Shown here: positions 33,068-52,793 of the stretch, one piece after another
Layout: every line of letters starts with the position of its first letter
Numbering within the stretch: position 1 is the stretch's first letter
Sequence record: NZ_CP028351.1
Reading direction: 5' to 3' (one strand)
Length of the DNA: 64,000 nt
From: a plasmid
Program-made: the position numbers and the translations under genes
The notes under the pieces: generated by a model
Database searches by the model: none
What the model was told of the DNA's origin: nothing
The model's input: the letters and a program-made list of their open reading frames with translations, nothing else

Positions 33068-33103
33068 CTTTGCTCGCTTATTAATCAGAAAACGCGATGA
33101 TCG

Positions 33104-33160
33104 CGCTACGTGAATTCTGAGAATTCAGCAGGGGGATTACCGGTCAGAATTTACGTAGCG
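33104..33160. repeat. 17-bp inverted repeat (1 mismatch) with a 23-bp spacer in the Cre-like gene promoter / 5' region
   Basis: CGCTACGTGAATTCTGA (33104-33120) and its reverse complement TCAGAATTTACGTAGCG (33144-33160) flank GAATTCAGCAGGGGGATTACCGG. They lie 37-93 bp upstream of the recombinase ATG. Confidence 0.5.
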
Positions 33161-33221
33161 TTGCCATTTTGCAGCCTTACCTTTGCTGCCCATTATCATA
33201 ACCCGTCAATTTTCCTGTGTC

Positions 33222-33255
33222 ATGACTTCGTATAAGAACAATTATACGAAGTTAT
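33222..33255. other. 34-bp lox-type recombination site: loxP-like 13-bp inverted arms around a novel 8-bp spacer
   Basis: ATGACTTCGTATA-AGAACAAT-TATACGAAGTTAT. The right arm is identical to the loxP arm. The left arm differs from ATAACTTCGTATA at one position (A3G). The spacer differs from loxP ATGTATGC / GCATACAT. It sits 155 bp upstream of the Cre-like gene, as loxP sits upstream of cre in P1. Confidence 0.8.
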
Positions 33256-33956
33256 AATTCCATAGCCTTTCTGCAAGATTTTTGCCAACCGGTCTGGCGC
33301 AGAATCGTGTGGAGTAGGGTGTCATCCTGACCACGCATTTACCGGTTGCGTTAGCATAAGGACACAGGCTGTGCAGAGCATGAGATTTGAACCAGACGTC
33401 TGAATAACCCTTCTCAACTTCAGCTTAATAAAATTACTCACTTAAATAATGGCAATAGTGAATTGAATTGATAAGACGATTTTCAATGGCTCATAAATAA
33501 TCGAACACGAAGCTCGCCTGAAAATAAGCCAGAAAAGATCCCAAATGATATTCACGTTCCGGACGACCATGACCATTATTTATCGTTAGCCTGTAAGTTG
33601 AGCAGATTTTCCCACCATTATCTTTATTGTCACGAACTGATAACCCCACATTCCTACTACCAAAAAGTGTTCTGAAAGCATTTGTCAGAATAAAAAACTA
33701 AATATCAATATTTTAAAGATTTAAATATCACCCGGCAATGACAAGCCGCTATCCTGCACTCCTGAATATGGGAAGCAGTGACACCCTTTTATCCGCTTTT
33801 AATCAAAATAAGACGGACAGTTAATGAACTGACCGAAGCAGATTAATAATGAATAAGATGATATTGGGGTCATTGAGAACTAATCAATTATGCGCATTTT
33901 TATGCCGGCGTCTGAAGTAACACCGGCATTCATCAGGGTAAAAAGAGGATTTTTTC

Positions 33957-34424
33957 ATGAAGAAAAGTTTATTATCGCTGTGTCTTTTAGGTCTTTCCTG
34001 CGCGCCGGCTATTACACTGGCACAACAGCCGGTTAGCTGTGTCAAAGCGTCTGAACAGGATGTAGCCAGCCTGTTTGATACCTGGAATAATACGCTGGCA
34101 ACCGGCGATGCGACTAAAGTCTCTGAGTTATATGTCAGCGATGCCGTGCTGCTGCCAACTATTTCAAACCATGTGCGCCTGACAGACCAGGAACGCATTG
34201 ACTATTTCAAAGACTTCCTGAAAAAAGGTCCGAGCGGTAAAATTGATTCCCGCACTATCCGGATTGGCTGTAATAAAGCGATTGATGCCGGCGTTTATAC
34301 CTTTACCTTCAAAGATAACACGCACGTCACTGCACGTTATACCTTCACTTACGTCTGGGATGGCAAGGGCTGGAAAATCTCAACGCATCACTCTTCAGCT
34401 ATGCCAGAGCCAGTGAGCAAGTAA
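33957..34424 (+). CDS. Secreted NTF2-like / DUF4440 (SgcJ/EcaC-type) family protein
   Basis: 155 aa. Signal peptide MKKSLLSLCLLGLSCAPAITLA. Body shows the SnoaL/NTF2-like pattern (FDTWNNTLATGDATKVSELYVSDAVLLPTIS...). Confidence 0.55.
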   Translation: MKKSLLSLCLLGLSCAPAITLAQQPVSCVKASEQDVASLFDTWNNTLATGDATKVSELYVSDAVLLPTISNHVRLTDQERIDYFKDFLKKGPSGKIDSRTIRIGCNKAIDAGVYTFTFKDNTHVTARYTFTYVWDGKGWKISTHHSSAMPEPVSK

Positions 34425-34695
34425 TATTCTTTCACATTAGTACCGACTTTTTAAAATCAGCCTCTGAATATTTCAGGGGCTAATTTTTATGGTCAAAAAA
34501 TATTTTTATTGCCTCAGCCAGAAATACCTGAAAAAGCCAAAGCCATATTATGAATTAGCTTTGCGAATATTGTAATAACCACGCTATTTACTTCGTTCTG
34601 ACCAACTGCCTATTATCGCTTTCATCGTAAATAAATGTGACGCGCTCAATATCAGCCAATCTGCTTTGACGCCTGTCTCTTTTTCCGGAAGCGCT

Positions 34696-35907
34696 ATGAA
34701 ACTCATCTCAGATCCTCCCGAGACTTGCCTGGCAGCCGTCATTACCCGACGCGATCAGGCTATTCAGGCTGCCCATTCGCTGGCTGAACAGGCGAAACCT
34801 GGTGCCATTGAACGCGATCAGCAACGACTTTACCCCCGCGACCTTCTCGACAGGTTTACCCGGCTCGGACTGGGCAGCATCAGTGTTCCACGCCACTTTG
34901 GTGGTGGGGGACTGGATTTTCAGACAGTGGCGGAGGTATTCCGCATCATCTCAGCCAGCGATCCCTCTCTGGGCCAGATTCCGCAAAATCACTTTGGTCT
35001 GATTCAGTTCATTCTTGGCGAAGGCAACCCGCAACAACAGACAACATTGCTGCAGGCGGTGGTCAGTGGCAAACGGCTGGGCAATGGGGGCCCCGAGAAG
35101 AACACCCGCCATACGCGGGACATTCAGGCACGGCTGGTCAGTGACGGTCCGGAACACCGTCTGACCGGAGAGAAATTCTATTCTACCGGTGCATTGTTCG
35201 CAGACATTCTGGTGACCACCGCTCTGCAGGAGAGTGACCAGCCTGCAATGGCTTTTATCCCGCTGCCTGCCAACGGCGCAGAGATTATTGATGACTGGTC
35301 AGGCATGGGTCAGCGTACCACGGCCAGCGGCACAGTAAGGCTTGATCGGGTTGCCGTAGATCCTGCATTGCTTATCCCCTTGCCGCCAGAAGAAAAACCG
35401 ACCCTGCGCGGGGCTGTCTCGCAACTGATTCAGGCGGCGATCGATGCTGGTATCGCTCAGGGCGCGCTGGACGATGCGCTGGAGTTTGTCCGCAGCAGCT
35501 CACGCCCCTGGGTGGACGCAGGCGTGGAGCGCAACGCTGACGATCCCTACATCCTTGCTGACATCGGTCGTATCAGTACTGAACTGAGCGCCGCAAATGC
35601 CCTACTGCGCCGGGCCGCAAACGTGCTTGATTCACTCGATCAGCAGGCACTGACAGCAGAAAACAGCGCAGCCGCCTCTATTGCCGTAGCGGAAGCCAAA
35701 GTGCTGACCACTGACATCGCGCTGCGTGCCAGTGAAAAACTGTTGGAGTGGGGCGGCAGTCGCGCCACGCTCCTGCAGCATGGGCTGGATCGCCACTGGC
35801 GCAATGCGCGCACTCACACGCTGCACGACCCGGTGCGGTGGAAAACACACGCTATCGGCAATTACTACCTCAATGCGATCTACCCCGCGCGTCATGCATG
35901 GATTTAA
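34696..35907 (+). CDS. SfnB/DszC-like acyl-CoA-dehydrogenase-fold sulfur-acquisition oxidoreductase (paralog 1)
   Basis: 403 aa. ACAD-type fold with the family C-terminus LDRHWRNARTHTLHDPVRWKTHAIGNYYLN. Confidence 0.75.
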   Translation: MKLISDPPETCLAAVITRRDQAIQAAHSLAEQAKPGAIERDQQRLYPRDLLDRFTRLGLGSISVPRHFGGGGLDFQTVAEVFRIISASDPSLGQIPQNHFGLIQFILGEGNPQQQTTLLQAVVSGKRLGNGGPEKNTRHTRDIQARLVSDGPEHRLTGEKFYSTGALFADILVTTALQESDQPAMAFIPLPANGAEIIDDWSGMGQRTTASGTVRLDRVAVDPALLIPLPPEEKPTLRGAVSQLIQAAIDAGIAQGALDDALEFVRSSSRPWVDAGVERNADDPYILADIGRISTELSAANALLRRAANVLDSLDQQALTAENSAAASIAVAEAKVLTTDIALRASEKLLEWGGSRATLLQHGLDRHWRNARTHTLHDPVRWKTHAIGNYYLNAIYPARHAWI

Positions 35908-35916
35908 GGAGAAAGA

Positions 35917-37107
35917 ATGAGTCAGGTTCAGCCCAAACAGCACGCTTCCCCTATTCGCAGCGAGCAGCATGCGCTGGAAGTGGCTGCGCAACTGGCGCAG
36001 CAGTTCCGTGAGGGGGCCGCAGCGCGAGATCGTGAACGTGAACTGCCGCATTCCCCTCTGCAGACCCTGTTTCAATCAGGATTAGGGGGGATTACCGTGC
36101 CGCAGGCGTACGGAGGCATTGCCGTATCAACCGCCACACTCGTCTCTGTGATCACGCTAATTAGCGAGGCTGATGCAGCGATTGGTCAGGTTCCGCAAAA
36201 TCACTACTACGCGCTGGAAGTGCTGCGCGTTAACGGCAGTGAATCACAAAAACAACGGTTGTATCGGGAAGTCCTGACAGGCGTGCATCTGGGCAATGCG
36301 CTGGCAGAGTTCTCCTCCCGTGCCGCACATCAGCGGACCACGCAGATTCGGTGCAATATTCTCAACGGCAGCAAGTTCTACGCTACCGGTGCGCTGTTTG
36401 CTGACCGCATTCCCACGGCTGCGCGCGATGAAGAGGATAAAGAGCAACTGGTATTTGTGCCACGTCATCAGGCGGGTGTGACCGTTATTGATGACTGGAG
36501 CGGGTTTGGTCAGCGCACCACAGGCAGCGGCAGCGTCCTCTTCGAAAACGTCACGGTGGATGCTGCAGATGTGGTGCCGTTTCAGACAGCATTTGAGCGG
36601 CCGACGACCGTCGGTCCTTTTGCGCAGATTATGCACGCCGCTATCGATCAGGGAATTGCACGCGCCGCATTTAACGACATGCTCGATTTTCTGCGCCAGC
36701 GTGCCCGACCCTGGCCCGACAGCGGGGTAACGCGTGCCACTGATGACCCCTTAACGCTCGATCGCACCGGACGTCTGGCGGCGCGACTGAGCGCCGGTGA
36801 CGCCCTGTTAGCCGAGGCAGGGGCAGCCATCGACGCCGCGCAACAGCAGTCTGACGCCGCGACGGTGGCGCTGGCCTCGGTGGAGGTGGCCAGAGCGCGT
36901 GCCTGGACCACAGAAGTCTCACTGGAAGCGGCTAATTTGCTGTTTGAACTGGGCGGTTCACGCGCCAGCCTGCGTGAATATAACCTTGATCGCCACTGGC
37001 GTAACGCGCGCACCCATACCCTGCACGATCCGGTACGCTGGAAATATCCCGCGATAGGGAATTACCTGCTCAATGGCGTGCTGCCACCGCGCCGGGGCAC
37101 GCTATGA
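35917..37107 (+). CDS. SfnB/DszC-like sulfur-acquisition oxidoreductase (paralog 2)
   Basis: 396 aa behind a GGAGA RBS. Same family signature (LDRHWRNARTHTLHDPVRWKYPAIGNYLLNG). The stop overlaps the next ATG (ATGA). Confidence 0.75.
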   Translation: MSQVQPKQHASPIRSEQHALEVAAQLAQQFREGAAARDRERELPHSPLQTLFQSGLGGITVPQAYGGIAVSTATLVSVITLISEADAAIGQVPQNHYYALEVLRVNGSESQKQRLYREVLTGVHLGNALAEFSSRAAHQRTTQIRCNILNGSKFYATGALFADRIPTAARDEEDKEQLVFVPRHQAGVTVIDDWSGFGQRTTGSGSVLFENVTVDAADVVPFQTAFERPTTVGPFAQIMHAAIDQGIARAAFNDMLDFLRQRARPWPDSGVTRATDDPLTLDRTGRLAARLSAGDALLAEAGAAIDAAQQQSDAATVALASVEVARARAWTTEVSLEAANLLFELGGSRASLREYNLDRHWRNARTHTLHDPVRWKYPAIGNYLLNGVLPPRRGTL

Positions 37108-38453
37108 CTCAGAAACAGGTTCTGCTCAACGCGTTTAACATGAATTGTGTCGGCCATATTCATCACGGCATGTGGACGCACCCGGAAGACCGTTCAACCG
37201 AGTTCAATACGCTGGCCTACTGGACTGATCTGGCCCGCCTGCTGGAACGCGGACTGTTCGATGGACTCTTTATTGCGGATATTCTGGGCGTCTATGACGT
37301 TTATCAGCAGGGTATTACGCTAACGGCACGCGAGTCGATTCAGTTGCCGGTCAACGATCCGCTGATGCTGGTTTCGGCTATGGCGGGCGTCACGCAGCAT
37401 CTTGGCTTCGCCGTGACCGCGAATCTCAGTTATGAAGCACCTTTTCCTTTTGCCCGCCGTCTTTCCACACTCGACCATCTGACTCAGGGACGGATAGGCT
37501 GGAACATCGTCACCGGCTACCTGGACAGCGCCGCCCGTGCCATGGGAAACAAACAGCTGCTGGCACACGATGAGCGCTATGCACAGGCGGATGAGTTTCT
37601 CGATGTCAGTTATCAGCTATGGGAAGGAAGCTGGCAGGATGATGCGCTGGTTGTCGATCGCCCGAATCGTCTTTACGCAGACGCCACGAAAATTCATCCG
37701 GTCAGGCATCAGGGTGAATTTTATCAGGTTGAAGGCTATCACCTCAGCAGCCCGTCACCCCAGCGTACGCCGTTACTGTTTCAGGCCGGCACCTCTGCAC
37801 GCGGGATTCAGTTTGCTGCGCGTCATGCCGAATGCACTTTTGTTAACGCAGCGACACCCGCAGCGATGCACCAGCAGACTCAGCGGCTGCGACAGGCCGC
37901 AGTTGAAGCAGGTCGACGTGCAGATGATTTGCGCATCTTCATGGGTGTCGGCGTCATCGTCGCCCCGACAGAGCGTGAAGCACAGGAGAAACACCGCAGT
38001 TATCTTGAATATGCCAGCCCGGAAGCAGGCATTGCCCATTTCTCCAGTTCCATTGGTCTCGATCTGGCCGCCTTTGAGCTCGACGAGCCCATTATCAGCG
38101 GGGAGACCCGGGCTATTGAATCGGTCAGTAAAGCCTACAGCGGCTGGACTCGTCGCCGTCTGCTGGAGCAGCATGCGATGGGCAGTCGCTATCCACTCAT
38201 AATTGGTAATCCCGCGCAGGTCGCGGACGCGCTGCTGCACTGGATGGATGAAGGCGACATTGACGGCTTTAATCTGACCCGCATTCTGAACCCGCAGAGC
38301 TACCGCGACTTTATCGATTTAGTTGTACCTGAACTCCAGCAGCGCGGGCGCTATAAAACGGCTTATCAGCCCGGTTCACTACGCCACAAAATTTTCCAGC
38401 AGGATCGCCTGCCCGAACGTCACCCGGCGGCTCGCTGGCGTCATCCCGCCTGA
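37104..38453 (+). CDS. LLM-class flavin-dependent monooxygenase, NtaA/SnaA/DszA family
   Basis: 449 aa. N-terminus LLNAFNMNCVGHIHHGMWTHPEDRS...YWTDLARLLERGLFDGLFIADILG is diagnostic of the nitrilotriacetate-monooxygenase / DszA family. Translationally coupled to the preceding sfnB. Confidence 0.8.
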   Translation: MTQKQVLLNAFNMNCVGHIHHGMWTHPEDRSTEFNTLAYWTDLARLLERGLFDGLFIADILGVYDVYQQGITLTARESIQLPVNDPLMLVSAMAGVTQHLGFAVTANLSYEAPFPFARRLSTLDHLTQGRIGWNIVTGYLDSAARAMGNKQLLAHDERYAQADEFLDVSYQLWEGSWQDDALVVDRPNRLYADATKIHPVRHQGEFYQVEGYHLSSPSPQRTPLLFQAGTSARGIQFAARHAECTFVNAATPAAMHQQTQRLRQAAVEAGRRADDLRIFMGVGVIVAPTEREAQEKHRSYLEYASPEAGIAHFSSSIGLDLAAFELDEPIISGETRAIESVSKAYSGWTRRRLLEQHAMGSRYPLIIGNPAQVADALLHWMDEGDIDGFNLTRILNPQSYRDFIDLVVPELQQRGRYKTAYQPGSLRHKIFQQDRLPERHPAARWRHPA

Positions 38454-38486
38454 CCTCATTGATCTATTTAACCTCAAGGAATCACC

Positions 38487-39296
38487 ATGACACGCTCAAA
38501 AACACTACGCGCCGCACTGGGCGGCTTGCTGCTGACCCTCAGTGCCGCGGCGACCGCAGCGAACTATTCCGGCCCGCTCAAAGTGGGCACCACCGCCGCG
38601 TTTGCCCCGCCGCTGGAGACCGCCGTCGCTGAAGCAAAGAAGCAGGGACTGGATGTTGAACTTGTCGAATTTACCGACTGGACTGCCCCGAATGTCAGCG
38701 TGGAAAATGGCGATATCGACGTCAATCTGTTCCAGCACAAGCCGTTTCTGGAGAATGCTAATCAGTCCGGCGGCTTCCACCTGGTCGCTTATGCGCCAGC
38801 CATCATCAATAACATTGGTCTTTATTCCAAAAAACACAGCGCGATTGATCAGGTTCCCGAAGGCGGCACCGTTGCTATCGCCAACGATCCGATTAATGGC
38901 GCACGCGGATTATTGCTGCTGCAGAAGGCGGGGCTGATTACGCTCAAACCGGGTGTGGGACTGAAAGCAACCGTTGATGACATCGTCAGTAACCCTAAAA
39001 AGCTGAAAATTATCGAAGTAGAAGCGGTACAGCTCTCGCGCTCGCTTGAAGAAGTCGACCTGGCGCAGGGTTATCCACACTATCTGCGTCTGGCAAAAAC
39101 GATTGATCCCAATAAGGCACTGCTGTTCGACGGGCTGGAGCACCCGGAATATGTCATTCAGTTCGTAATCCGTCAGGGTCATCAGGACGATCCGCGACTG
39201 GCGAAGTTTGTTGATATCTATCAGCACTCTCCGGTAGTCCGCGCCAGCCTCGACAATTTCTATGGCAAACTCTATCAGCCAGGCTGGAGCCAGTAA
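38487..39296 (+). CDS. MetQ/NlpA-family ABC transporter substrate-binding protein
   Basis: 269 aa. Signal peptide with an Ala-rich cleavage site and no lipobox Cys. Fold looks like methionine-binding protein MetQ. Confidence 0.75.
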   Translation: MTRSKTLRAALGGLLLTLSAAATAANYSGPLKVGTTAAFAPPLETAVAEAKKQGLDVELVEFTDWTAPNVSVENGDIDVNLFQHKPFLENANQSGGFHLVAYAPAIINNIGLYSKKHSAIDQVPEGGTVAIANDPINGARGLLLLQKAGLITLKPGVGLKATVDDIVSNPKKLKIIEVEAVQLSRSLEEVDLAQGYPHYLRLAKTIDPNKALLFDGLEHPEYVIQFVIRQGHQDDPRLAKFVDIYQHSPVVRASLDNFYGKLYQPGWSQ

Positions 39297-39298
39297 TC

Positions 39299-40399
39299 AT
39301 GGTCAGCCTGAGCATCCCTGAGACGTCGGCATTGTCCGATGCCGCTACGCGCCATACCAGCGGTGCCTCACACGTCATCATTGAAGCATTAAGTAAACGC
39401 TATCCCGGCCAGTCTGTGGATGCCCTGCGCAATATTAATCTCGGGATCCATCGCGGAGAAATATTCGGCATCATTGGCCGCAGCGGCGCGGGAAAATCTA
39501 CGCTCATCCGCTGCCTTAATCGTCTGGAAGAACCGACTGCCGGACGCATCGTGATCGATGGCACCGATATCAGCGCGTTTAACGCGCGGCAGCTGGTCGA
39601 ATGGCGGCGCAGCACCGGCATGATTTTCCAGCACTTCAATCTGCTGTCGGCCAAAACCGTACGGCAGAATATTGAGCTACCGCTAAAAGTGGCAGGCGTG
39701 CCTGCTGCCGTGCGGGCGCGCAAAGTGGATGAGCTGCTGGCGCTGGTCGGGCTGGAGGCACGGCAACACGCCTGGCCCGCACAGCTTTCCGGTGGACAGA
39801 AACAGCGCGTCGGTATTGCGCGTGCGCTGGTCCACGATCCGGAACTACTGCTGTGCGATGAAGCGACATCAGCACTCGACCCCGAAACGACACGCTCAAT
39901 TCTGGCGCTGCTTAAAAAGATCAATCAGCAACACCATATTACCATTGTGCTGATCACCCATGAGATGGACGTCGTTCATGACCTCTGCCACAACGTTGCG
40001 GTAATCGATCAGGGTGAAATCATTGAGCGCGGCCCGGTCTGGCAGGTTTATAGCGATCCGCAGCAGGAGACAACGCGCCAGCTGCTGAACCCCAATCACC
40101 AGGCTCTGCCAGAGTCGGTCGGCACACGCCTGACTGCCCACCGGCAACATCATCAATCCCGTCTGTTGGTGCGGTTACGCTACACCGGGCAGGGTGCACA
40201 ACCCGATATCGGTGCGCTGAGTGCAGAGATCGCGGGCGAAATCACCCTGATTTACAGCGCTATCGAGTGGGTTGACAGCAAACCCACCGGCCAGTTGTTG
40301 CTCCTGCTGGATGCCCGACACGAGGCGCAATCCGTGACAACTCAACTGGCGCACATCGCCGATCGACTGGAGGTATTAGGTTATGTCACCGGCTATTGA
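39299..40399 (+). CDS. MetN-type ABC transporter ATP-binding protein (with C-terminal NIL/C2 regulatory domain)
   Basis: 366 aa. GRSGAGKSTLIRCLNRLE, LSGGQKQRVGIARAL, LLLCDEATSALDP. The C-terminal ~100 aa end in ...LEVLGYVTGY like MetN. Confidence 0.85.
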   Translation: MVSLSIPETSALSDAATRHTSGASHVIIEALSKRYPGQSVDALRNINLGIHRGEIFGIIGRSGAGKSTLIRCLNRLEEPTAGRIVIDGTDISAFNARQLVEWRRSTGMIFQHFNLLSAKTVRQNIELPLKVAGVPAAVRARKVDELLALVGLEARQHAWPAQLSGGQKQRVGIARALVHDPELLLCDEATSALDPETTRSILALLKKINQQHHITIVLITHEMDVVHDLCHNVAVIDQGEIIERGPVWQVYSDPQQETTRQLLNPNHQALPESVGTRLTAHRQHHQSRLLVRLRYTGQGAQPDIGALSAEIAGEITLIYSAIEWVDSKPTGQLLLLLDARHEAQSVTTQLAHIADRLEVLGYVTGY

Positions 40400-41033
40400 A
40401 CGTTTATGGGTCGCCTTTCTGGATACGCTGCTGATGGTAGGCGTCTCCTCTGCGCTCGCGCTTGCGCTGGGCTTACCAATGGCGGTGATTCTGGTGGTCA
40501 GCGGACGCGGCGATCTTTTTCCCAGCCCACTACTTAATCGGGTGCTGGGCTGGGTGGTTAACCTCTTTCGCTCCATCCCATTTCTGATCCTGATGGTGGC
40601 GTTAATTCCCTTTACCCGCTGGATTGTGGGAACCACCTATGGCGTTTGGGCAGCCGTCGTACCGCTTACCCTGGCGGCCACCCCGTTTTTTGCCCGTATT
40701 GCGGAGGTCAGCCTGCGTGAAGTTGATAAAGGACTGACCGAAGCGGCGCAGGCCATGGGATTTCATCGCTGGCATATTATCTGGCATGTGCTGCTGCCGG
40801 AAGCGCGGCCAGGCATCGTCAGCGGTTTTACCATCACGCTGGTGACGATGATTAACGCGTCAGCGATGGCCGGCGCCATCGGTGCAGGAGGATTAGGGGA
40901 TCTGGCGTATCGTTATGGTTATCAGCGGTTTGATATGCAGGTAATGGTGACAGTTATTGTGGTGCTGGTCGCGCTGGTGACGTTGCTTCAGTTGTGCGGT
41001 GACCGGCTGTCGCGACGGCTGAATCACCGCTAA
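40383..41033 (+). CDS. MetI-type ABC transporter permease
   Basis: 216 aa polytopic membrane protein with the EAA-loop region (AAQAMGFHRWHIIWHVLLPEARPGI). Overlaps the ATPase gene end. Confidence 0.85.
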   Translation: MSPAIERLWVAFLDTLLMVGVSSALALALGLPMAVILVVSGRGDLFPSPLLNRVLGWVVNLFRSIPFLILMVALIPFTRWIVGTTYGVWAAVVPLTLAATPFFARIAEVSLREVDKGLTEAAQAMGFHRWHIIWHVLLPEARPGIVSGFTITLVTMINASAMAGAIGAGGLGDLAYRYGYQRFDMQVMVTVIVVLVALVTLLQLCGDRLSRRLNHR

Positions 41034-44001: not shown

Positions 44002-45414
44002 TCATCCTGATATTTCAGCGCTATATATCTGCGTTTCTGCGTCAGCATGGCGGCGGTAACCGGCACCCGGATGTGGCAACGCCAGCCGCGGTCCCTTTCC
44101 GAACAACTTTTCACGCAGCGTGCCGGGCTGATAGTTCTGCTTGTAGACGCCGCGCTTTTGCAGTTCCGGCACCAGCAGTTCCACCACGTCAGTGAAGGTT
44201 TCATGCGTCACAGCGTAGGCGAGGTTAAATCCGTCAACGTCGGTCTCTTCAACCCAGCTCTGCAGTTCATCCGCTACGGTTTCGGCGCTGCCCACCAGCA
44301 ACGGGCCAAAACCGCCAATGCCCACCCAGTCAGCCAGCCCCTGCACCGTCCACTGACGAGTGGGATCGGCGGTGGAGAAGGTCTCGACCGCCGACTGAAT
44401 GGCGTTGGTATGCAGATGCTTCAGTACCTGATCCGGCTGATACTGCCCGAAATCGATACCGGTCCAGCCCGAGATGAGCGCCAGCGCGCCTTCGTAACTG
44501 ACATAGCTTTTGTACTCCTGCCATTTCGCCTGCGCCGCCAGGTCGGTTTCACCCACAATCACCGTCTGCAGATTGAAGATCAGGATGGAACGCGGGTCAC
44601 GTCCCGCCTCAGCGGCCCTGCGGCGAATATCTGCCACAGTTTTCTTCAGCAGTACTTTCGACGGTGCCGCGACAAATACACATTCAGCATGCTCCGCTGC
44701 AAAGGCCTTACCGCGGCTGGAGGCACCGGCCTGGTATAGCACCGGCGTGCGCTGCGGTGACGGCTCGCAAAGATGAATACCCGGCACCTGGAAAAACGTT
44801 CCCTGATGGTTAATCGGATGGATTTTGTTGGGGTCGCTGAATATATGACGTTCACGATCGCGCAGGACAGCGTCGTCTTCCCAGCTTCCCTCCAGCAGCT
44901 TATAGATAACCTGCAGATACTCATCGGCGTAGTCGTAGCGCGCATCGTGATCGGTCTGAGCCTGATGCCCGATATTGCGTGCGCCACTTTCCAGGTAGGA
45001 GGTGACAATATTCCAGCCAATACGGCCTTTGGTCAGATGATCCAGGGTCGAGATCCGCCGCGCAAACGGGTAGGGGTGTTCAAACGACAGCGAGGCGGTC
45101 AGGCCAAAGCCCAGGTGTTCCGTCACCATGGCCATCGGCGTGATTAACGCCAGCGGATCGTTTACCGGTACCTGTGTAGCCTGACGGATGGCGGCATGGT
45201 TATTACCGTTGAGCACGTCATAGACACCCAGCACATCAGCAATAAACAGCCCATCAAATTTACCGCGTTCCAGCAGGCGCGCTAAATCGGTCCAGTACGC
45301 CAGATCTTTATACTGCCATGAGCGGTCACGCGGATGCGCCCACAAGCCGGGTGACTGATGACCAACACAGTTCATATCGAAAGCATTCAGGCGAATTTCA
45401 CGTTGCGATGACAT
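44002..45414 (-). CDS. LLM-class flavin-dependent monooxygenase, NtaA/SnaA/DszA family (second copy)
   Basis: 470 aa from MSSQREIRLNAFDMNCVGHQSPGLWAHPRDRS (AGGAG RBS). Paralog of 37104..38453. Confidence 0.8.
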   Translation of the reverse strand: MSSQREIRLNAFDMNCVGHQSPGLWAHPRDRSWQYKDLAYWTDLARLLERGKFDGLFIADVLGVYDVLNGNNHAAIRQATQVPVNDPLALITPMAMVTEHLGFGLTASLSFEHPYPFARRISTLDHLTKGRIGWNIVTSYLESGARNIGHQAQTDHDARYDYADEYLQVIYKLLEGSWEDDAVLRDRERHIFSDPNKIHPINHQGTFFQVPGIHLCEPSPQRTPVLYQAGASSRGKAFAAEHAECVFVAAPSKVLLKKTVADIRRRAAEAGRDPRSILIFNLQTVIVGETDLAAQAKWQEYKSYVSYEGALALISGWTGIDFGQYQPDQVLKHLHTNAIQSAVETFSTADPTRQWTVQGLADWVGIGGFGPLLVGSAETVADELQSWVEETDVDGFNLAYAVTHETFTDVVELLVPELQKRGVYKQNYQPGTLREKLFGKGPRLALPHPGAGYRRHADAETQIYSAEISG

Positions 45415-45482
45415 AGCGACTCCTGAGCGGATGCGGCAATCGCTTGCCGCCCACCTTTTAATATGTGTTTTATAAGGAAGAT

Positions 45483-46895
45483 TCAGTAAGTGAGTGAGCC
45501 GGGACATCGCTCGCTGACAGGCAGGGATAGGGCATTCAGCAGTTGCCGTGCAACAGACTCGGCATGTTCCGCCACCTGCGGTAATCCCATCAGCTCGCCA
45601 AAGCGACCCCGTGCGGCAGGCCCGGCAACATACAGTCCGGGATTCGCTTCATCGTTCACATTCAGCGTCTGAGACAGTGCATTAACCTGGATCCCCAGCG
45701 CCAGCGGGTCAGGCTGGATAACGCCATCGCCATGGAGCTGACGCAGCAGCGCATTGCTGTTAAGCAGCGCGTTGTGTGCAGGGCCGGTGGTGACAATAAC
45801 TTTCTCCACCTCCAGCCTGTGCGATTGCGCGCCACGCAGGCGCAGCGTTAGCCGGAGCGTTGCGCCATCCGATTCAGCGGCGATAAGGCGCGCCGCCAGC
45901 AGAGTCAGCTGACCGCTGGCCTGCTGTTGGCTGAGGATCTGGCTAACCTGCGGCGCAATCCGGTAGCGATGAACATCCCACCAGGGGCGCAGATGATGCA
46001 GAAAGCGCTGCTGCTCATGCAGCGACAGACTCTGCCAGATGCGCTGACCGTTACGGCGGATATCATCCAGCACCAGCTGCCAGGGCAGATTCAGCGCCGC
46101 CGCCTGTTTAACCTCCTGTCGCACACGATGTAGCCAGCCGCGCGCGGTGGCGGATTGCGGCTGACTGTAATCCAGAGCGTAGGTCTCATTGTTGCCACTC
46201 AGGTTGGCACGCGGCAGCTGGCCACGACGTGAGAAGACGGTAATCTTTCCACGGTGCTGCTGACGATGCAGCGACGCCACCATATCGGACATGGTCAGCC
46301 CTGAACCGATAATCGCCACCCGATCGTCAGGGACGACCTGCGCCAGCGCGTCGCGCTGCCAGGGATTGGCAATCAAACCCGGATGGCCCTGTAGCGGCCT
46401 CAGCAGAGCAGGCAGATCCGGCGGGGGATGGCTGGTCGCCAGCACCACCTGATCGGCATGAATCTGCTGCCCGGAGGCCGTGGTCACCACGCCATTCTTA
46501 AAGGCAACCGCACTGTCACGCAGATGGCTCAGTTTCACCGGTGAGTGCTGCTGCTGATGAACAAACTGCGCATTGACCCAGCGTCCGAACTCACCGCGTT
46601 GCGGGTAGACGTTGCCGTCATGCCACAGCGCTTCCGGATCGGCCCTGAAGTCGGCAGAGGCGCGATAGTCGCGATCGAAAACACCCTCTTCATCACCGGC
46701 GAGCTGCATTCTGCCGGCCGGCACATTAATGCGGTGGGCCGGATCGGTGGTACCGTATGCCACGCCCTGCGCCAGCTGTGCGCGAGGTTCAATCACCGTC
46801 ACCTGTAATCCCGCCTGGCCAGCGCGGGCCAGATGGATCGCCAGCGCAGTGCCGGTGAACCCGCCGCCGATAATGACAATCTGCTGTTGTGACAT
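45483..46895 (-). CDS. FAD/NAD(P)-binding oxidoreductase (YdhS-like)
   Basis: 470 aa from MSQQQIVIIGGGFTGTALA, a Rossmann GxGxxG dinucleotide-binding N-terminus. Confidence 0.65.
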   Translation of the reverse strand: MSQQQIVIIGGGFTGTALAIHLARAGQAGLQVTVIEPRAQLAQGVAYGTTDPAHRINVPAGRMQLAGDEEGVFDRDYRASADFRADPEALWHDGNVYPQRGEFGRWVNAQFVHQQQHSPVKLSHLRDSAVAFKNGVVTTASGQQIHADQVVLATSHPPPDLPALLRPLQGHPGLIANPWQRDALAQVVPDDRVAIIGSGLTMSDMVASLHRQQHRGKITVFSRRGQLPRANLSGNNETYALDYSQPQSATARGWLHRVRQEVKQAAALNLPWQLVLDDIRRNGQRIWQSLSLHEQQRFLHHLRPWWDVHRYRIAPQVSQILSQQQASGQLTLLAARLIAAESDGATLRLTLRLRGAQSHRLEVEKVIVTTGPAHNALLNSNALLRQLHGDGVIQPDPLALGIQVNALSQTLNVNDEANPGLYVAGPAARGRFGELMGLPQVAEHAESVARQLLNALSLPVSERCPGSLTY

Positions 46896-46920
46896 AAGCG
46901 AGCCTTTTTCTGTTAACTGA

Positions 46921-48093
46921 CTAGCTGGCGCTGGCCTGTTTAGCCGGGCGACGGTCGCCGCCGATGGTTTCACCAAACGGACCTGTATTGACGCTGCGCT
47001 GTTTCTTTTCGGCGTTGGCGGCCAGCGGCAACAACGGCATTACCAGCTCCGCAAAGCGGTGTGCCTCTTCAAGATGCGGATAGCCGGAGAAGATAAAGTT
47101 CTCAATGCCCAGTGCCTGATACTCCCGGATGCGATCGGCAACCTGCTGCGGATTGCCGACCAGCGCAGTCCCTGCACCGCCGCGCACCAGGCCAACGCCC
47201 GCCCAGAGATTGGGACCGATGCGCAGGCTCTCACGCGACCCCTGATGCAGGGCACTCATCCGCGCCTGACCGGCGGAGTCCATGCGGGCAAAGATTTTCT
47301 GCGCGGCGGCGATAGTCTCTTCATCCAGATGAGAAATCAGCCGATCGGCCGCCGCCCAGGCTTCCTCTTCCGTTTCACGTACAATGACATGTAAGCGGAT
47401 GCCATAAGAGAGCGTGCGGCCATTCTCCTGTGCTCGCTGACGAACCACCGCCAGCTTCTCCGCGACCTGTTCAACCGGCTCGCCCCACGTCAGATAGGTG
47501 TCGATCTGATTCGCCGCAACGTCGATAGCAGCCTCAGATGAGCCACCGAAATAGAGTGGCGGACCGTCTTCCTGAACCGGCGGGAAGAGGATCTCGGCAC
47601 CTTCCACGCGAATATGTTCGCCTTCAAAGTCTACCTTCTCGCCTTTCAGCAGGCGGGAGTAAACCTCAAGAAATTCTTTGGTCACCTGATAGCGCTCTTC
47701 ATGACTCAGGAAGATGCCGTCACCTTTGTTCTCTACCGGATCACCACCCGTGACCACGTTGATCAGCAACCGGCCGCCGGAGAGACGGTCCAGCGTCGCC
47801 GCCATCCGCGCCGCCAGGCTGGGCGGTTGCAGGCCGGGACGCACGGCCACTAAATAGCGCAGCTTTTTGGTGATCGGTGCCAGTGCCGAGGCGACCAGCC
47901 ATGAATCCTCGCAGCTTTTACCGGTCGGGATTAACACACCGTAGTAGCCCAGATTATCTGCCGCCAGCGCAACCTGCTGTAAATAGTGTAAATCGACTGC
48001 TCTGCCGCCTTCGGTGGTACCCAGATAGCGCCCGTCGCCGTGGGTAGGCAGAAACCAGAAGAGGTTGAGGTTTTCCTGTGTCGCATGACTCAT
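46921..48093 (-). CDS. ssuD: Alkanesulfonate monooxygenase-like LLM (SsuD family)
   Basis: 390 aa. Colinear with recalled E. coli SsuD: [114 protein letters not shown]. Confidence 0.85.
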
Positions 48094-48162
48094 TAGCAGA
48101 TTCCTTTATAACGATATTAAAATTTATCACATAGGGTTAATCCCTTTTGTTATATAGCCTCT

Positions 48163-48179
48163 AGCAGGATGCGTGCCAC
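48163..48179 (-). promoter_or_regulatory. Sigma-54 (-24/-12) promoter for the ssuD-like operon
   Basis: Minus strand reads GTGGCACG-CATC-CTGCT, against the consensus TGGCACG-N4-TTGCW. GG and GC are correctly spaced. The predicted TSS is about 55-60 nt before the ssuD-like ATG. Confidence 0.6.
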
Positions 48180-48241
48180 TGCGATGAAATATTTTTATTA
48201 TCAAAATTCAATAACTTATCGTTTTTGTGGCAGACGCTAAT

Positions 48242-48289
48242 CTGCTGCATTCGCAACAGGCATAGTTGCATCCTGCTGCATTGGCAACA
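48242..48289. repeat. Tandem 17-bp direct repeats (candidate enhancer-binding sites) between the sigma-54 promoter and the activator gene
   Basis: CTGCTGCATTCGCAACA (48242-48258) and CTGCTGCATTGGCAACA (48273-48289) sit 31 bp apart. Each embeds TTGC/GCAA half-palindromes (GCAAC-N7-GTTGC). They lie about 75-125 bp upstream of the sigma-54 -24 element. Confidence 0.4.
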
Positions 48290-48367
48290 ATCTGACTCGT
48301 TCCGCCTCTCGTTTCGGCGTTAGCGGCGCGGTATGGTCATGGTTTTCCCGTTCATCCGGTAAATGAG

Positions 48368-50257
48368 ATGCAGATATCCAGTCCTGAGTTAATTGACCCC
48401 GCATCGCGCGCCTTTAAAAGCGTGCTGGATCAGCTCGCGCCCACCGATGCGACGGTACTGATCATCGGTGAAACCGGCACCGGCAAAGAGGTGATGGCGC
48501 GCTATCTGCATCACCATAGCGCCCGCAGCCGGCAGCCTTTTCTGGCGGTTAACTGCGGCGCACTTACTGAGAGCCTGGCGGAGTCGGAGCTGTTTGGTCA
48601 TGAGAAGGGTGCCTTTACCGGCGCACAGGACAGGCATCGTGGCTGGTTTGAGGCGGCAGAGGGCGGCACGCTGCTGCTGGATGAGATTGGTGAGCTAAGC
48701 CCGTCGCTGCAGGTGAAGCTGCTACGCGTGTTGCAGGAGCGTGAGATTACCCGCGTCGGATCGTCCAGGCCGGTAAAAGTCAATGTGCGGGTCATTGCCG
48801 CGACCAACCGGGATCTGGCGGTGGCTATCCGTGAACGGCGATTCCGCGAAGATCTCTACTACCGGCTGAATGTGGCCAGCGTCACACTGCCGCCGCTGCG
48901 CCAGCGCTGCGAAGATATTCCGGTGCTGGCCAGTCACTTCCTGCAGATCTATGCGCGCCGTCTTGGTCGTCCTCAGCTGCGCCTCAGTGATGAAGCCATG
49001 ACAGTGCTGATGAACTACAGCTGGCCGGGCAACATCCGTGAACTGGAGAACACGCTGCACAACGCCGTGCTGCTCAGCAAAACCTCACTGGTCACGCCGC
49101 AGCAGCTGCGGCTAAGCCCTCTTGCGGGGAGCGACCTGCCGCAGGGAGAGGAGGCGCTTGATCAGTTTTTACGCCAGCAGATGCAGCAGAGTGATACACC
49201 GCTCTATCCCCGGGTAATTGCTGCGCTGGTGAAAAATGCGCTGGAACTCACCCAGGGTAATCAGTTACAGGCGGCCGCGCTGCTGGGTATCAGCCGACAT
49301 ACATTGCGCACACAGCTGGGACATCTGGGGGTGATTAAACCGCGCCGCGGTTCAGTGCGTCAGCGCGACATATCGACTGGTCAGCAGCCTGAGCGGGAGC
49401 GGGAACTGCGTATTGGTTATCAGAAATTTGGCAACCTTGGCATTCTGAAAGCCCGCCAGTCGCTGGAGCAGCAGCTGGCCGGGCAGGGTGTCAGCGTCAT
49501 GTGGAGTGAATTTCCTGCGGGTCCGCAGCTTCTGCATGCACTGAGCAATAAGGAGATCGATTTCGGGACCACCGGTGAAGTTCCCCCCTTGTTTGCGCAG
49601 GCCAGCAACAGTCCCATGGTCTATGTTGCCTGGGAACCTGCCGCCCCGCAAAGCGTGGCGCTGCTGGTGCCTAACAGCAGCCCGGTTAAGCAGATTGGCG
49701 ATCTCAGAGGCAAACGTATTGCCGTGAATCGCGGCTCCAACGTTCACTATCTGTTGTTGCAGATTCTGGATGAGGCGGGTTTAGCGCTGGATGATGTGCG
49801 CATTGTCTATGCCCCGCCTAAATATCCGCTGACGCCCAGCGATCTCAACGCGGTGGATGCCTGGATGATGTGGGATCCGTTACTCAGCGATGCGGAGAAC
49901 AGCGGAGAGTTCAGGGTGATTGCGGATGGCACAGGCCGGGTCAATAACCATCAGTTTTACCTGGCTGAGCGCGGATTTTCGACGCACTCTGGCGATCTGT
50001 TACAGGTTCTGCTTAGCGCACTGGGGCAGACCGGCCGCTACATTGATGCGCATCGTGCTGAAGCTGCCGGGCTGCTCTCAACGGAACTCGGCATCTCTGC
50101 AACCTCACTGATGCACGCCTTAGCCCGGCGCAGCCATCAGACCCAAAGAATGAACCTGGCCATCATCCGGGAACAGCAGACTATCGCCGACCGCTTCTAT
50201 GCGCTGGGGTTATTCAGTCGCGCTATTCGCGTACGCGAGTCGGTCTGGCATCCATAG
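48368..50257 (+). CDS. Sigma-54-dependent transcriptional activator (SfnR-like AAA+ and Fis-HTH, no N-terminal sensor) fused to a C-terminal SsuA/TauA-like solute-binding domain
   Basis: 629 aa. Residues 1-~250 are the sigma54-interaction AAA+ domain (GETGTGKEV, ESELFGHEKGAFTGA). The HTH is QAAALLGISRHTLRTQLGHLG. After a ~30-aa linker the last ~290 aa (from LRIGYQKFGNLGILKARQ...) are clearly paralogous to the adjacent periplasmic SsuA-like protein (compare VNIGFQKANIFALLKYRG / EFPAGPQ / DLKGKRVA / GSDVNYLL / VDAW.IWDP) but carry no signal peptide. Confidence 0.8.
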   Translation: MQISSPELIDPASRAFKSVLDQLAPTDATVLIIGETGTGKEVMARYLHHHSARSRQPFLAVNCGALTESLAESELFGHEKGAFTGAQDRHRGWFEAAEGGTLLLDEIGELSPSLQVKLLRVLQEREITRVGSSRPVKVNVRVIAATNRDLAVAIRERRFREDLYYRLNVASVTLPPLRQRCEDIPVLASHFLQIYARRLGRPQLRLSDEAMTVLMNYSWPGNIRELENTLHNAVLLSKTSLVTPQQLRLSPLAGSDLPQGEEALDQFLRQQMQQSDTPLYPRVIAALVKNALELTQGNQLQAAALLGISRHTLRTQLGHLGVIKPRRGSVRQRDISTGQQPERERELRIGYQKFGNLGILKARQSLEQQLAGQGVSVMWSEFPAGPQLLHALSNKEIDFGTTGEVPPLFAQASNSPMVYVAWEPAAPQSVALLVPNSSPVKQIGDLRGKRIAVNRGSNVHYLLLQILDEAGLALDDVRIVYAPPKYPLTPSDLNAVDAWMMWDPLLSDAENSGEFRVIADGTGRVNNHQFYLAERGFSTHSGDLLQVLLSALGQTGRYIDAHRAEAAGLLSTELGISATSLMHALARRSHQTQRMNLAIIREQQTIADRFYALGLFSRAIRVRESVWHP

Positions 50258-50352
50258 CGTTTTTTTAGCTAAGCATCGAACATTTCATCGCTAAGCGCTT
50301 CAAGCCGCGTTTGTTATGTTGCGCAGACAACAACCAGACTCAGGAACGAGAG

Positions 50353-51300
50353 ATGAAAAAAGTTTTACTCAGCGCTTTGATTATTGCCGCCCAGGCGGGT
50401 TTCGCGTTCAGCACCCAGGCAGCAGAAAAACCCGAGACAGTGAATATCGGTTTTCAGAAAGCCAATATTTTCGCGCTGCTGAAGTATCGCGGCACGCTGG
50501 ATCAGGAATTTAAAAAGCAGGGCATTGCGGTGCACTGGATTGAGTTCCCGGCCGGACCGCAGATGCTGGAGGGCTTAAACATCGGCAGTATCGATCTGGC
50601 CGCTACCGGCGACGCGCCACCGACGTTCGCGCAGGCCGCACAGGCCGATCTGGTTTATCTGGGACACTCGCCAGCTAACCCAAAAACCGAAGCGATTGTG
50701 GTGCCCGCTGACTCCCCGATTAAAAGCGTGGCGGATCTCAAAGGCAAGCGTGTGGCGCTGAACAAAGGCTCTGACGTTAACTATCTGCTGGTCACCGCGC
50801 TGGAGCAGGCAGGGCTGACCTATAAAGACATTACGCCGGTCTATCTCCCCCCTGCTGATGCGCGCGCCGCTTTCCAGCGCGGCGCGGTGGATGCCTGGGT
50901 CATCTGGGATCCCTACTACGCTGAAGTGGAAACTAATGCCCACGCGCGGCTGATTAAAAATGCTGAAGGGCTGGTGCCACACTACACCTTCTATCTTGCC
51001 AGTCGTAAGTTCGCGGAGCGCTATCCACACATCGCTTCTGAGGTGGTGGATGAGCTGGGTTCACTGAGTCAGTGGGCTAATCAAAATCAGGAAGAAGCCG
51101 CAAAAATCATGTCCACCTCAACCGGCCTGCCGCAGCCGATCTGGCAGCGCGCGCTGGCAAGGATGCCGTTTGGCGCGGAGCGGATGACGCCAGAAGTCTT
51201 CACCCAGCAGCAGGCGCTGGCAGATACCTTTACCCGGATTGGTCTGTTGCCGGTGAAAGTTGATATCCGCAGCGCGACATGGTCGCAGGATAAGAAGTAG
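50353..51300 (+). CDS. Periplasmic aliphatic sulfonate/NitT/TauA-family ABC substrate-binding protein (SsuA-like), orphan
   Basis: 315 aa from MKKVLLSALIIAAQAGFAFSTQA (AGGAACGAGAG RBS). SsuA/TauA-type SBP fold. No cognate permease or ATPase genes are adjacent. Confidence 0.8.
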   Translation: MKKVLLSALIIAAQAGFAFSTQAAEKPETVNIGFQKANIFALLKYRGTLDQEFKKQGIAVHWIEFPAGPQMLEGLNIGSIDLAATGDAPPTFAQAAQADLVYLGHSPANPKTEAIVVPADSPIKSVADLKGKRVALNKGSDVNYLLVTALEQAGLTYKDITPVYLPPADARAAFQRGAVDAWVIWDPYYAEVETNAHARLIKNAEGLVPHYTFYLASRKFAERYPHIASEVVDELGSLSQWANQNQEEAAKIMSTSTGLPQPIWQRALARMPFGAERMTPEVFTQQQALADTFTRIGLLPVKVDIRSATWSQDKK

Positions 51301-51659
51301 GCAAACATCAGTCGGATGTTTATCAGGATAAATGCCGCCTGACATCTGATGATAATCAGGCCCGGTAAATAGCAACAGGCGGCCTCGCTAATCCTGTTCC
51401 AGCATTAGCCCGGGACTTTACAGCAGGATGAGGATAAGCAGAACGGCAGAGAGAGATGAACGTTTTTTTAGCGAAGCGGTTTTACATTTCAGAGAGTTAC
51501 ATGATATTTCTTTTGACAGGCTGCGCCATAAGCTGTTCTACACTTACACTTTCAGTCACGCCGTTTGACTGAAAAAGCAGCATCACGAAGAAGGTGGTGA
51601 CGGCAATGCATCACGCAGTCGCCACCCTCAAAACTGATCATGCCTGTGAGGTAAACACT

Positions 51660-52793
51660 ATGAAAGCAGTTGTCTATAACGGACCTTTTGACGTTTCAGT
51701 CAAAGATGTCCCGGATCCGAAAATCGTTCGTCCCACCGATGTGATTGTCCGTATTACCACCACCAATATCTGCGGTTCTGACTTACATATGTACGAAGGG
51801 CGAACCAGCTTTGAGCAGGGTCGCATCTTCGGCCATGAGAATCTGGGCCAGGTTGTTGAAATTGGTAGCGGTGTAGATCGGATTAAAGTCGGTGATTATG
51901 TCTGCCTGCCCTTTAATGTCGGCTGCGGCTTCTGTGAAAACTGCGAGAAGGGGTTAACCGGTTACTGTCTTACGGCAAATCCGGGTACGGCCGGTGCCGC
52001 CTATGGCTTTGCGGAGATGGGCGAATGGGAGGGTGGACAGGCGGAGTTACTTCGTGTTCCTTTTGCTGACTTTAACTGCCTGGTACTGCCGCCGGATGCG
52101 GCAGAAAAGGAGGAAGACTACGTTATGCTGTCCGACATCTTCCCCACCGGCTGGCATGCCACTGAGCTGGCAGGCTTGCGCCCTGGCGAGAGTGTTGCCA
52201 TTTACGGCGCTGGCCCGGTCGGCTTAATGGCGGCGCACTCGGCCATGATTAAAGGCGCATCACAGGTCTTTGTGGTCGATACCCATCCGGACAGACTGGC
52301 GTTAGCCGAACAGCTTGGCGCTGTGGCAATTAATGGCGTGGGCGATGAGGCGGTCAATAAAATCCTCGAACTCACCGATGGACGCGGCACGGATTGCGGT
52401 TGCGAATGCGTGGGTTATCAGTGCTGCAATAAACATGGACACGAAGATAACTCCGCCACGCTGAACAGCCTTGTTGCATCAACTAAAGCCACGGGCGGTA
52501 TTGGTACGGTAGGCGTTTTTGTTCCTCAGGATCCGGGCGGGGCAACCGAACTGGCTAAAGAGGGCAAAGTGCCGTTCGATTTTGGTACGTTCTGGTTTAA
52601 AGGTCAGTCAATGAAGACCGGCCAGTGTAACGTGAAAGCCTACAACCGCCAGCTCGCAAGGCTTATCCATCAGGGCAGAGCCAATCCGTCGCAGATTATC
52701 TCGCATCGTCTTGCACTGACAGACGCTCCCGAAGGCTATAAGCATTTTGACAACCGGGATAATGGCTGGACAAAGGTTATCCTGAAACCCTGA
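51660..52793 (+). CDS. fdhA: Glutathione-independent formaldehyde dehydrogenase (Zn-dependent MDR family)
   Basis: 377 aa from MKAVVYNGPFD (GAGG RBS). TNICGSDLHMYEGR, GHENLGQVVE, PFNVGCGFCENCEKGLTGYCL, GGQAELLRVPFADFN and GAGPVGLMAAHSA are colinear with recalled P. putida FdhA. Confidence 0.8.
   Translation: MKAVVYNGPFDVSVKDVPDPKIVRPTDVIVRITTTNICGSDLHMYEGRTSFEQGRIFGHENLGQVVEIGSGVDRIKVGDYVCLPFNVGCGFCENCEKGLTGYCLTANPGTAGAAYGFAEMGEWEGGQAELLRVPFADFNCLVLPPDAAEKEEDYVMLSDIFPTGWHATELAGLRPGESVAIYGAGPVGLMAAHSAMIKGASQVFVVDTHPDRLALAEQLGAVAINGVGDEAVNKILELTDGRGTDCGCECVGYQCCNKHGHEDNSATLNSLVASTKATGGIGTVGVFVPQDPGGATELAKEGKVPFDFGTFWFKGQSMKTGQCNVKAYNRQLARLIHQGRANPSQIISHRLALTDAPEGYKHFDNRDNGWTKVILKP

Follow-up and report, generated by a model that had tools for sequence, protein, structure and literature searches.

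Bacterial enhancer-binding proteins are the textbook case of transcriptional activators that are controlled through an N-terminal sensor. Among those that act in sulfur scavenging, SfnR of Pseudomonas putida and P. aeruginosa is reportedly a sigma-54 activator of the sfnFG and msu genes. These genes serve the utilization of dimethylsulfone and methanesulfonate. Here, we describe a gene that combines such an activator with a relative of SsuA, the binding protein of the SsuABC sulfonate transporter. It lies on a plasmid (sequence record NZ_CP028351.1), of which a stretch of 64,000 nucleotides, hereafter the window, was analyzed, and it encodes a sigma-54 activator fused to an SsuA-like domain (629 aa; 48368..50257, + strand). 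We consider it probable that this protein is a one-component SfnR-like enhancer-binding protein with an added binding-protein domain, which activates the divergently transcribed ssuD operon. Its architecture and the assignment of its regulon are well supported.

The gene constitutes one open reading frame (ORF) without an internal stop or a change of frame. All three parts of its product could be assigned by domain searches of Pfam and NCBIfam, and lie on the + strand. The AAA+ sigma-54 interaction domain (PF00158, Sigma54_activat) occupies residues 13-172 (48404..48883; E 2.6e-69, 232.7 bits versus a cut-off of 20.2), followed by the lid domain AAA_lid_14 (PF25601) at residues 178-249 (48899..49114; E 6e-24) and a Fis-type helix-turn-helix (HTH; Pfam HTH_8) at residues 287-314 (49226..49309; 30.8 bits versus a cut-off of 22). 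In an alignment of 15 orthologues, the Walker A sequence GETGTGKE (residues 34-41, 48467-48490), the Walker B sequence LLLDEIGE and the GAFTGA loop (residues 81-86, 48608-48625) show no variation, and the HTH is conserved. According to Pfam and the same alignment, no N-terminal regulatory domain, which is typical of enhancer-binding proteins although not universal, precedes the AAA+ domain. By every sequence criterion except this non-universal domain, the fusion protein thus classifies as a bacterial enhancer-binding protein.

Beyond the HTH, the protein continues through a linker of ∼20 aa (about residues 324-343; 49337..49396) rich in R, S, P and Q, which is nearly unconserved and is the only hypervariable, indel-bearing stretch of the alignment; a low-confidence AlphaFold2 model of the full-length protein shows it as coil. 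What follows is an SsuA-family domain of the type 2 periplasmic-binding-protein fold (residues 344-629; 49397..50254), as indicated by matches to the NCBIfam models TIGR01728 and PRK11553 and by a Pfam NMT1 match at residues 374-482. Over its last 295 aa, the protein aligns from end to end with the mature SsuA proteins of both Escherichia coli (PDB 2X26, E 9e-55) and Xanthomonas citri (PDB 3E4R, E 1.1e-54). Because this domain has no signal peptide, we place it in the cytoplasm. The sequence-only reading of this DNA had proposed an uninterrupted frame from the HTH into the binding domain, and the order Sigma54_activat, HTH_8 and SsuA-like without an N-terminal sensor. The single 629-aa ORF with its collinear orthologues bears out the former, and the domain searches confirm the latter.

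How does this protein compare with the described systems? It resembles SfnR, which we compared by description only, in starting directly with the AAA+ domain, in a predicted regulon of flavin-dependent organosulfur monooxygenases and in the proximity of its gene to sfnG-, msuE- and msuD-like genes in Azospirillum, Serratia and Lonsdalea. In contrast, SfnR is not known to extend beyond the HTH, while the fusion protein adds about 305 residues comprising the linker and the SsuA-like domain. With SsuA it shares homology over the full mature protein and the residues that coordinate the sulfonate. However, the fused domain forms its own clade, is attached to a transcription factor and has neither signal peptide nor permease nor ATPase; no ssuBC genes adjoin the fusion gene in the locus annotation or in orthologous loci. 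The domain belongs to the SsuA family by sequence and pocket, but not by export or partnership with a transporter.

Further likenesses are analogies. LysR-type regulators such as CysB and Cbl combine a winged HTH with a rigid linker helix, act at sigma-70 promoters and possess no ATPase. The fusion protein likewise places an effector domain of the type 2 periplasmic-binding-protein fold after an HTH, and likewise relates to sulfur starvation, which is analogy and not membership: its HTH is of the Fis type and lies, with a variable linker, behind an AAA+ motor, and neither the winged HTH PF00126 nor the LysR substrate-binding domain was among its Pfam and NCBIfam matches. Solute-binding-protein folds also serve as cytoplasmic sensors in NasS, a member of the NrtA/SsuA-like group, and in AmiC; these are separate proteins that sequester ANTAR antiterminators (in the pairs NasS-NasT and AmiC-AmiR), whereas here the fold is fused in cis to an enhancer-binding protein, so that the likeness goes no further than analogy. 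Similarly by analogy only, LevR of Firmicutes carries regulatory domains C-terminal to its AAA+ module, in this case PRD/EII domains phosphorylated by the phosphotransferase system (PTS). Yet the DNA-binding domain of LevR is N-terminal, and only the fusion protein has a binding-protein fold.

Given this unusual architecture, an assembly or sequencing artefact that joined a short activator gene to an ssuA gene was an obvious concern. This explanation is refuted by comparative data, which leave it a negligible probability. Hundreds of independent assemblies from many genera, complete genomes and plasmids among them, show the frame to be collinear, with full-length orthologues 71-93% identical to the window's protein. 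In a search of 5.8 billion proteins, all 120 top matches listed agreed in length (about 627-639 aa) and in their Pfam string, their sources being Pantoea (93%), Serratia, Rouxiella, Erwinia including E. amylovora, Tatumella and Gibbsiella; several orthologue clusters contain hundreds of sequences, from complete chromosomes. A protein search further recovered at least 80% of the fusion protein in one piece in 72 plasmid records. Plasmid pPag1 of P. vagans C9-1, to which the window is 98.5% identical, likewise carries the 629-aa gene in its RefSeq annotation. Moreover, the fusion junction sits exactly where a transport SsuA would have its signal peptide, and it varies in length without disrupting the frame. 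The fusion described in the sequence-only reading is thereby substantiated as genuine, and it proves to be widespread.

The family extends well beyond these close orthologues. Domain mapping after a search of 1.84 billion representatives at 50% identity yielded about nine clusters with the order AAA+, HTH and SsuA-like domain, down to 39% identity; named members of the distant clusters come from Methylocystis and a Myxococcota metagenome-assembled genome (MAG). Further occurrences in Pseudocitrobacter, Lonsdalea, Raoultella, Pantoea dispersa and two Azospirillum species emerged from a genome scan, and the genome loci of the fusion gene now cover eight Enterobacterales lineages plus Azospirillum. 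Rhizobium plasmids, which had matched in a DNA search, were discarded as carriers of the fusion since a protein search showed separate components only. One metagenomic protein (P0159, 341 aa) comprises just the HTH end and the SsuA-like domain, and may represent either an incomplete gene call or an independent version of the HTH-binding-protein unit. The sequence-only reading knew of no characterized case of this architecture, and our search of the full-text literature agrees, in that it found no experimental or comparative paper describing a sigma-54 activator with a C-terminal binding-protein domain, which is absence of evidence only. The architecture is nonetheless visible in databases, because automatic annotation (Joint Genome Institute names) already labels such proteins as hybrids of a regulator and a binding protein.

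As to the target of the regulator, the fusion gene is divergent from an operon of ssuD, an FAD-dependent oxidoreductase gene and an NtaA/DmoA-family gene in ten of ten Enterobacterales loci, with one Serratia locus (L004) an exception as regards DmoA. Within the 274-bp intergenic region of the window, we predict a sigma-54 promoter, TGGCACGCATCCTGCT (48163..48178, − strand), that faces ssuD and is an exact match to the strict pattern TGGCA[CT]-N5-[TC]TGC[TA]. Only two such matches occur in the 64-kb window, the other one lying within the coding region of feoB. In an alignment of 10 orthologous intergenic regions, the GG and GC elements at −24 and −12 are invariant and occupy the same position. 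Transcription is predicted to start near 48152, about 59 nt before the ATG of ssuD. A looser pattern (TGGCAC-N5-TTGC, allowing 2 mismatches) occurs in the window no more often than by chance, 89 times against 96 expected, and is uninformative by itself; the evidence for the promoter lies in its position and cross-species conservation. A scan of 48000-51700 for sigma-70 promoters and terminators returned nothing above shuffled controls. Serratia quinivorans has a further perfect match to the sigma-54 promoter, TGGCACGCTGGTTGCT, about 2.7 kb downstream of the fusion gene (locus L004, 11794-11809).

Upstream of the predicted promoter are two putative activator sites that share the 16-bp palindrome consensus TGCTGCA-N2-TGCAGCA: site 1, TGCTGCATTCGCAACA (48243..48258), which was found as a member of a direct-repeat family, and site 2, TGCTGCATTGGCAACA (48274..48289), 31 bp or three helical turns away. 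Both are conserved across the ten aligned intergenic regions, and they are perfect palindromes in Serratia and in Pantoea sp. B65. The AT-rich tract between these sites and the promoter contains a candidate site resembling that of integration host factor (IHF), ATTCAATAACTTA (48206..48218), with one mismatch to WATCAANNNNTTR. Its TCA and TTA columns are conserved in the ten regions, although we infer its identity from this resemblance. A conserved sigma-54 promoter and two palindromes between the two genes agree with the earlier guess of the ssuD operon as the target.

The strongest cross-check of this assignment is provided by Azospirillum, where sigma-54 promoters lie to either side of the fusion gene and each side shows the same palindrome ahead of its promoter (A. 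cavernae, locus L012, 5012-12398). On one side, these promoters would drive genes for an MsuE-type FMN reductase (TIGR03566, 216.9 bits versus 212.5) and the dimethylsulfone monooxygenase SfnG (TIGR04021, 620 bits versus a cut-off of 383). On the other side there are two palindromes, again 31 bp apart, followed by an uncharacterized gene of about 285-334 aa, which had no NCBIfam match, and by genes for an msuD/ssuD-type monooxygenase and an SfnB/DszC-like oxidoreductase. Along with the sfnG gene of the divergent operon in Serratia and Lonsdalea, these genes match the regulon (sfnFG, msu) reported for SfnR in Pseudomonas.

Taken together, these features suggest the following mechanism. The Fis-type HTH would bind the two palindromes in the intergenic region and, assisted by IHF-mediated bending, the AAA+ domain would act over 65-110 bp to remodel sigma-54 RNA polymerase at the promoter. 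This would switch on the divergent operon of ssuD, the FAD-dependent oxidoreductase and the DmoA-like gene for the scavenging of sulfur from sulfonates and C1 organosulfur compounds. The regulatory input would most likely come from the C-terminal SsuA-like domain, which is flexibly linked to the HTH and may bind an imported alkanesulfonate-type ligand in the cytoplasm, with methanesulfonate or another short sulfonate as the leading candidate. An open-to-closed change of the binding domain would then control the oligomerization or activity of the AAA+ domain; the domain could couple to the ATPase by blocking the ring until the ligand binds, or by driving dimer-to-hexamer assembly on the two sites. 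Of this scheme, the architecture and its conservation, the promoter and upstream sites, the gene linkage and the retained pocket residues were observed, and DNA binding at the palindromes, the choice of ligand and the way in which control is exerted (by relieving inhibition or by promoting assembly) are conjecture.

What speaks for a ligand? In X. citri SsuA, Gln36, Gly68, Gly86 and Ser141 coordinate the sulfonate group, and Trp185 packs against the alkyl part (PMC3839906). The fused domain has Q352, G385, G403 and W502 at the positions of Gln36, Gly68, Gly86 and Trp185, and N458 (within the pocket pair S457-N458) at that of Ser141, and all five residues are invariant in the Enterobacterales set. 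Across genera, the binding domain is 64-95% identical and the AAA+ and HTH half 70-96%, indicating that both halves are similarly conserved. Because the pocket residues are kept and the domain is conserved like the AAA+/HTH half, we infer that it binds an alkanesulfonate-type ligand in the cytoplasm; that it does so and supplies the regulatory input is, by this comparison of sequences, the likelier outcome, albeit by a modest margin of confidence. The exchange of Ser141 for Asn had been a candidate for a fusion-specific change, but was rejected, as stand-alone SsuAs of canonical ssu operons also read GSNVH. The closest stand-alone relatives share the complete signature of the fused domain, TTGE / GSNVH / WDP / HQ, and 41 out of ∼67 such relatives are encoded in ssuA-ssuD-(ssuC)-ssuB operons of Pseudomonas, Acinetobacter, Betaproteobacteria and Paenibacillus.

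The same pocket bears on the nature of the signal. Sulfate-starvation regulons are typically controlled by anti-inducers, such as adenosine 5′-phosphosulfate for Cbl and sulfide or thiosulfate for CysB. On this model, the domain might sense sulfur sufficiency or a product (sulfate, sulfite, thiosulfate or similar) and switch the activator off in response. In line with this, the positive dipole in the SsuA pocket is also found in oxyanion-binding proteins (PMC3839906). However, the pocket signature is identical to that of SsuAs which transport organosulfonates, and, according to the same publication, sulfate is not bound by X. citri SsuA (PMC3839906), making an anti-inducer an improbable signal in our estimation.

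A number of observations weigh against ligand control of the fusion protein, or against parts of it. The family-level scores of the SsuA-like domain are low: TIGR01728 (SsuA_fam) passes marginally at residues 347-627 (164.4 bits, cut-off 163.5), and PRK11553 at residues 343-629 stays below its cut-off (233 versus 299 bits). The conserved pocket residues could partly reflect constraints of the fold. The AlphaFold2 model of the full-length protein, computed from the 15-sequence alignment, which admitted only sequences with 71% identity or more, was unusable (mean pLDDT, a per-residue confidence score, 48; pTM, a global one, 0.31) and gives no view of how the binding domain might contact the AAA+ ring. 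The operon in the window has ssuD and the DmoA-like gene and lacks sfnG, which is why its physiological substrate may differ from that in Azospirillum and Serratia. Pseudomonas SfnR is not known to use a sensor domain and is reportedly controlled through CysB-driven expression, so ligand input may not be strictly needed. Likewise, a sensor is not obligatory in this lineage, because the AAA+/HTH half has as its nearest non-fused relatives short activators that carry no sensor (371-401 aa, 52-54% identical over residues 7-328).

These short relatives also supply the chief argument for a different explanation, in which the SsuA-like domain is a structural or oligomerization module, or a relic, and the regulator is constitutively active once made, as has been suggested for SfnR and other activators without a sensor. 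Control would then be exerted through transcription of the regulator gene (by CysB or Cbl under sulfate starvation) or through a second DNA-binding protein. One of the relatives, 54% identical to the AAA+/HTH half, is encoded by a MAG of the acidobacterium Candidatus Sulfotelmatobacter (locus L074, 1555-6472) beside an operon of ssuD, SsuA-like and ATP-binding cassette (ABC) genes that is sigma-54-driven by prediction and preceded by TGGCACGAGAATTGCC; this arrangement may be the non-fused counterpart of the system. An additional regulator is suggested by an inverted repeat, CTTTATAAC / GTTATATAG (48104-48112 and 48149-48157, with 36 nt between the arms), which overlaps the predicted sigma-54 start just upstream of the ssuD ribosome-binding site and whose arms are essentially invariant in 10 Enterobacterales loci. 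As an RNA element it was rejected, with no Rfam match and a folding no better than that of shuffles (z = 0.06); a DNA site is therefore favored, probably for a second, unnamed regulator, which is another point against control by the fusion protein alone. Nevertheless, the SsuA-like domain is full length and as conserved across genera as the AAA+ module. It also keeps the sulfonate-coordinating residues and the signature of transport SsuAs from Enterobacterales to Azospirillum, which would be unexpected of a mere scaffold. We therefore regard a constitutively active regulator as unlikely, if less so than the anti-inducer, and prefer the SsuA-like domain as a sensor. Whether it is a true small-molecule switch that gates assembly of the AAA+ ring from behind the DNA-binding domain is a more tentative proposition, which we would put somewhat below an even chance.

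Directly downstream of the fusion gene lies an accessory gene for an orphan periplasmic protein of the SsuA family (50353..51300, + strand; TIGR01728, 234 bits). Its ORF can be read from 50311 or from 50353, the latter being the probable ATG, and its N-terminus, MKKVLLSALIIAAQAGFAFSTQA/AEK, looks by inspection like a signal peptide. The description of this protein as a signal-peptide-bearing SsuA-type relative of the fused domain stands, but the identity of 40-45% estimated for the pair was slightly too high, as BLASTP gives 37% over 291 aa (E 1e-77). As the sequence-only reading had also noted, no transporter genes flank this gene; it is followed by a formaldehyde-dehydrogenase-like gene.

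The adjacent position, only 95 bp away on the same strand, and the common family had led to the idea that the two proteins form a matched pair for the same ligand, one inside and one outside the cell. This is not borne out. Each of the two is closer to canonical SsuAs (41-47% identity for the fused domain, 45-52% for the paralogue) than to the other, and in a neighbor-joining tree, which is rough and without bootstrap, fused domains cluster apart from stand-alone SsuAs, among which the paralogue nests. Their pocket columns differ as well, reading TTGE / GSNVH / HQ in the fused domain and ATGD / GSDVN / YT in the paralogue, so that N458 and H460 face D and N, and HQ faces YT. In addition, the paralogue is adjacent in some Pantoea-type loci only, and most orthologous loci lack it. 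The copy on pPag1 of P. vagans C9-1 (locus L001, 21312-22302) is split into two ORFs, by a frameshift or possibly by an old sequencing error, and does not figure in the plasmid gene table, whereas the gene is intact in the window (50311-51300). On this evidence, we consider a matched pair very improbable. The tree and the identities likewise rule out a recent tandem duplication of the neighbor as the source of the fused domain; since the fused domains and the paralogue fall into different clades, the fusion appears to be old.

The first gene of the divergent operon encodes an FMNH2-dependent alkanesulfonate monooxygenase of the ssuD/msuD type (46921..48093, − strand), which matches TIGR03565 at equivalog level (619.6 bits, cut-off 518). 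It is followed by an FAD/NAD(P)-binding oxidoreductase (45483..46976, − strand; Pfam NAD_binding_9) with no relative among PDB structures, and by a DmoA-like flavin monooxygenase of the NtaA/DmoA family (44002..45507, − strand; TIGR03860, 572 bits) that is very close to the dimethyl-sulfide monooxygenase DmoA (PDB 6AK1, E 8.9e-169). Judging from the C9-1 annotation, the likely starts of these two genes are at 46895 and 45414, respectively. The operon varies between lineages: sfnG lies within it in Serratia quinivorans and Lonsdalea, and the exceptional Serratia locus has ssuD, sfnG and the oxidoreductase with no DmoA-like match. Downstream of the operon, there are either major facilitator superfamily (MFS) and monooxygenase genes, as in the P. 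vagans/agglomerans group, or a MetNIQ-like ABC system.

On the other side, past the periplasmic paralogue, is the glutathione-independent formaldehyde-dehydrogenase-like gene (51594..52793, + strand, with a probable start at 51660 by annotation; TIGR02819, E 5.5e-106, below the cut-off of that model), which is confined to close Pantoea loci. Dimethyl sulfide is degraded via dimethyl sulfoxide, dimethylsulfone, methanesulfinate and methanesulfonate to sulfite (PMC13352529, PMC8234197). The formaldehyde-dehydrogenase-like gene fits a release of formaldehyde from C1 organosulfur compounds and, along with the DmoA-like gene, suggests that this Pantoea plasmid encodes a C1 organosulfur metabolism in which formaldehyde is released.

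The same island also holds an MFS gene and a MetNIQ-like ABC system, 5-15 kb farther upstream. At 32030-41033, the window also contains a tyrosine recombinase gene and then a second sulfur-scavenging cluster, consisting of two SfnB-family oxidoreductases, a luciferase-like (LLM) monooxygenase and a MetQNI-like ABC transporter. Since neither a sigma-54 promoter nor a palindromic site was seen upstream of this cluster, it is probably under different control. The region as a whole looks like an acquired organosulfur island.

The fusion regulator is carried by plant-associated and clinical Enterobacterales, among them Pantoea biocontrol strains, Erwinia amylovora and Serratia marcescens, in which it probably controls how sulfonates and C1 organosulfur compounds are used under a shortage of sulfate. 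If the proposed function is true, it would be the first direct sensor of an organosulfonate or sulfone in a sigma-54 sulfur-scavenging regulon, which also bears on the signal, if any, that SfnR-type regulators read beyond their CysB-driven expression. A natural and compact sulfonate-responsive sigma-54 switch of this kind might further serve as a biosensor. The family would join the HTH-plus-binding-fold effector module known from LysR-like regulators to an AAA+ motor. We know of no characterized precedent for gating AAA+ assembly from behind the DNA-binding domain, and a sensor in this place in a widespread family would add a new control geometry for enhancer-binding proteins.

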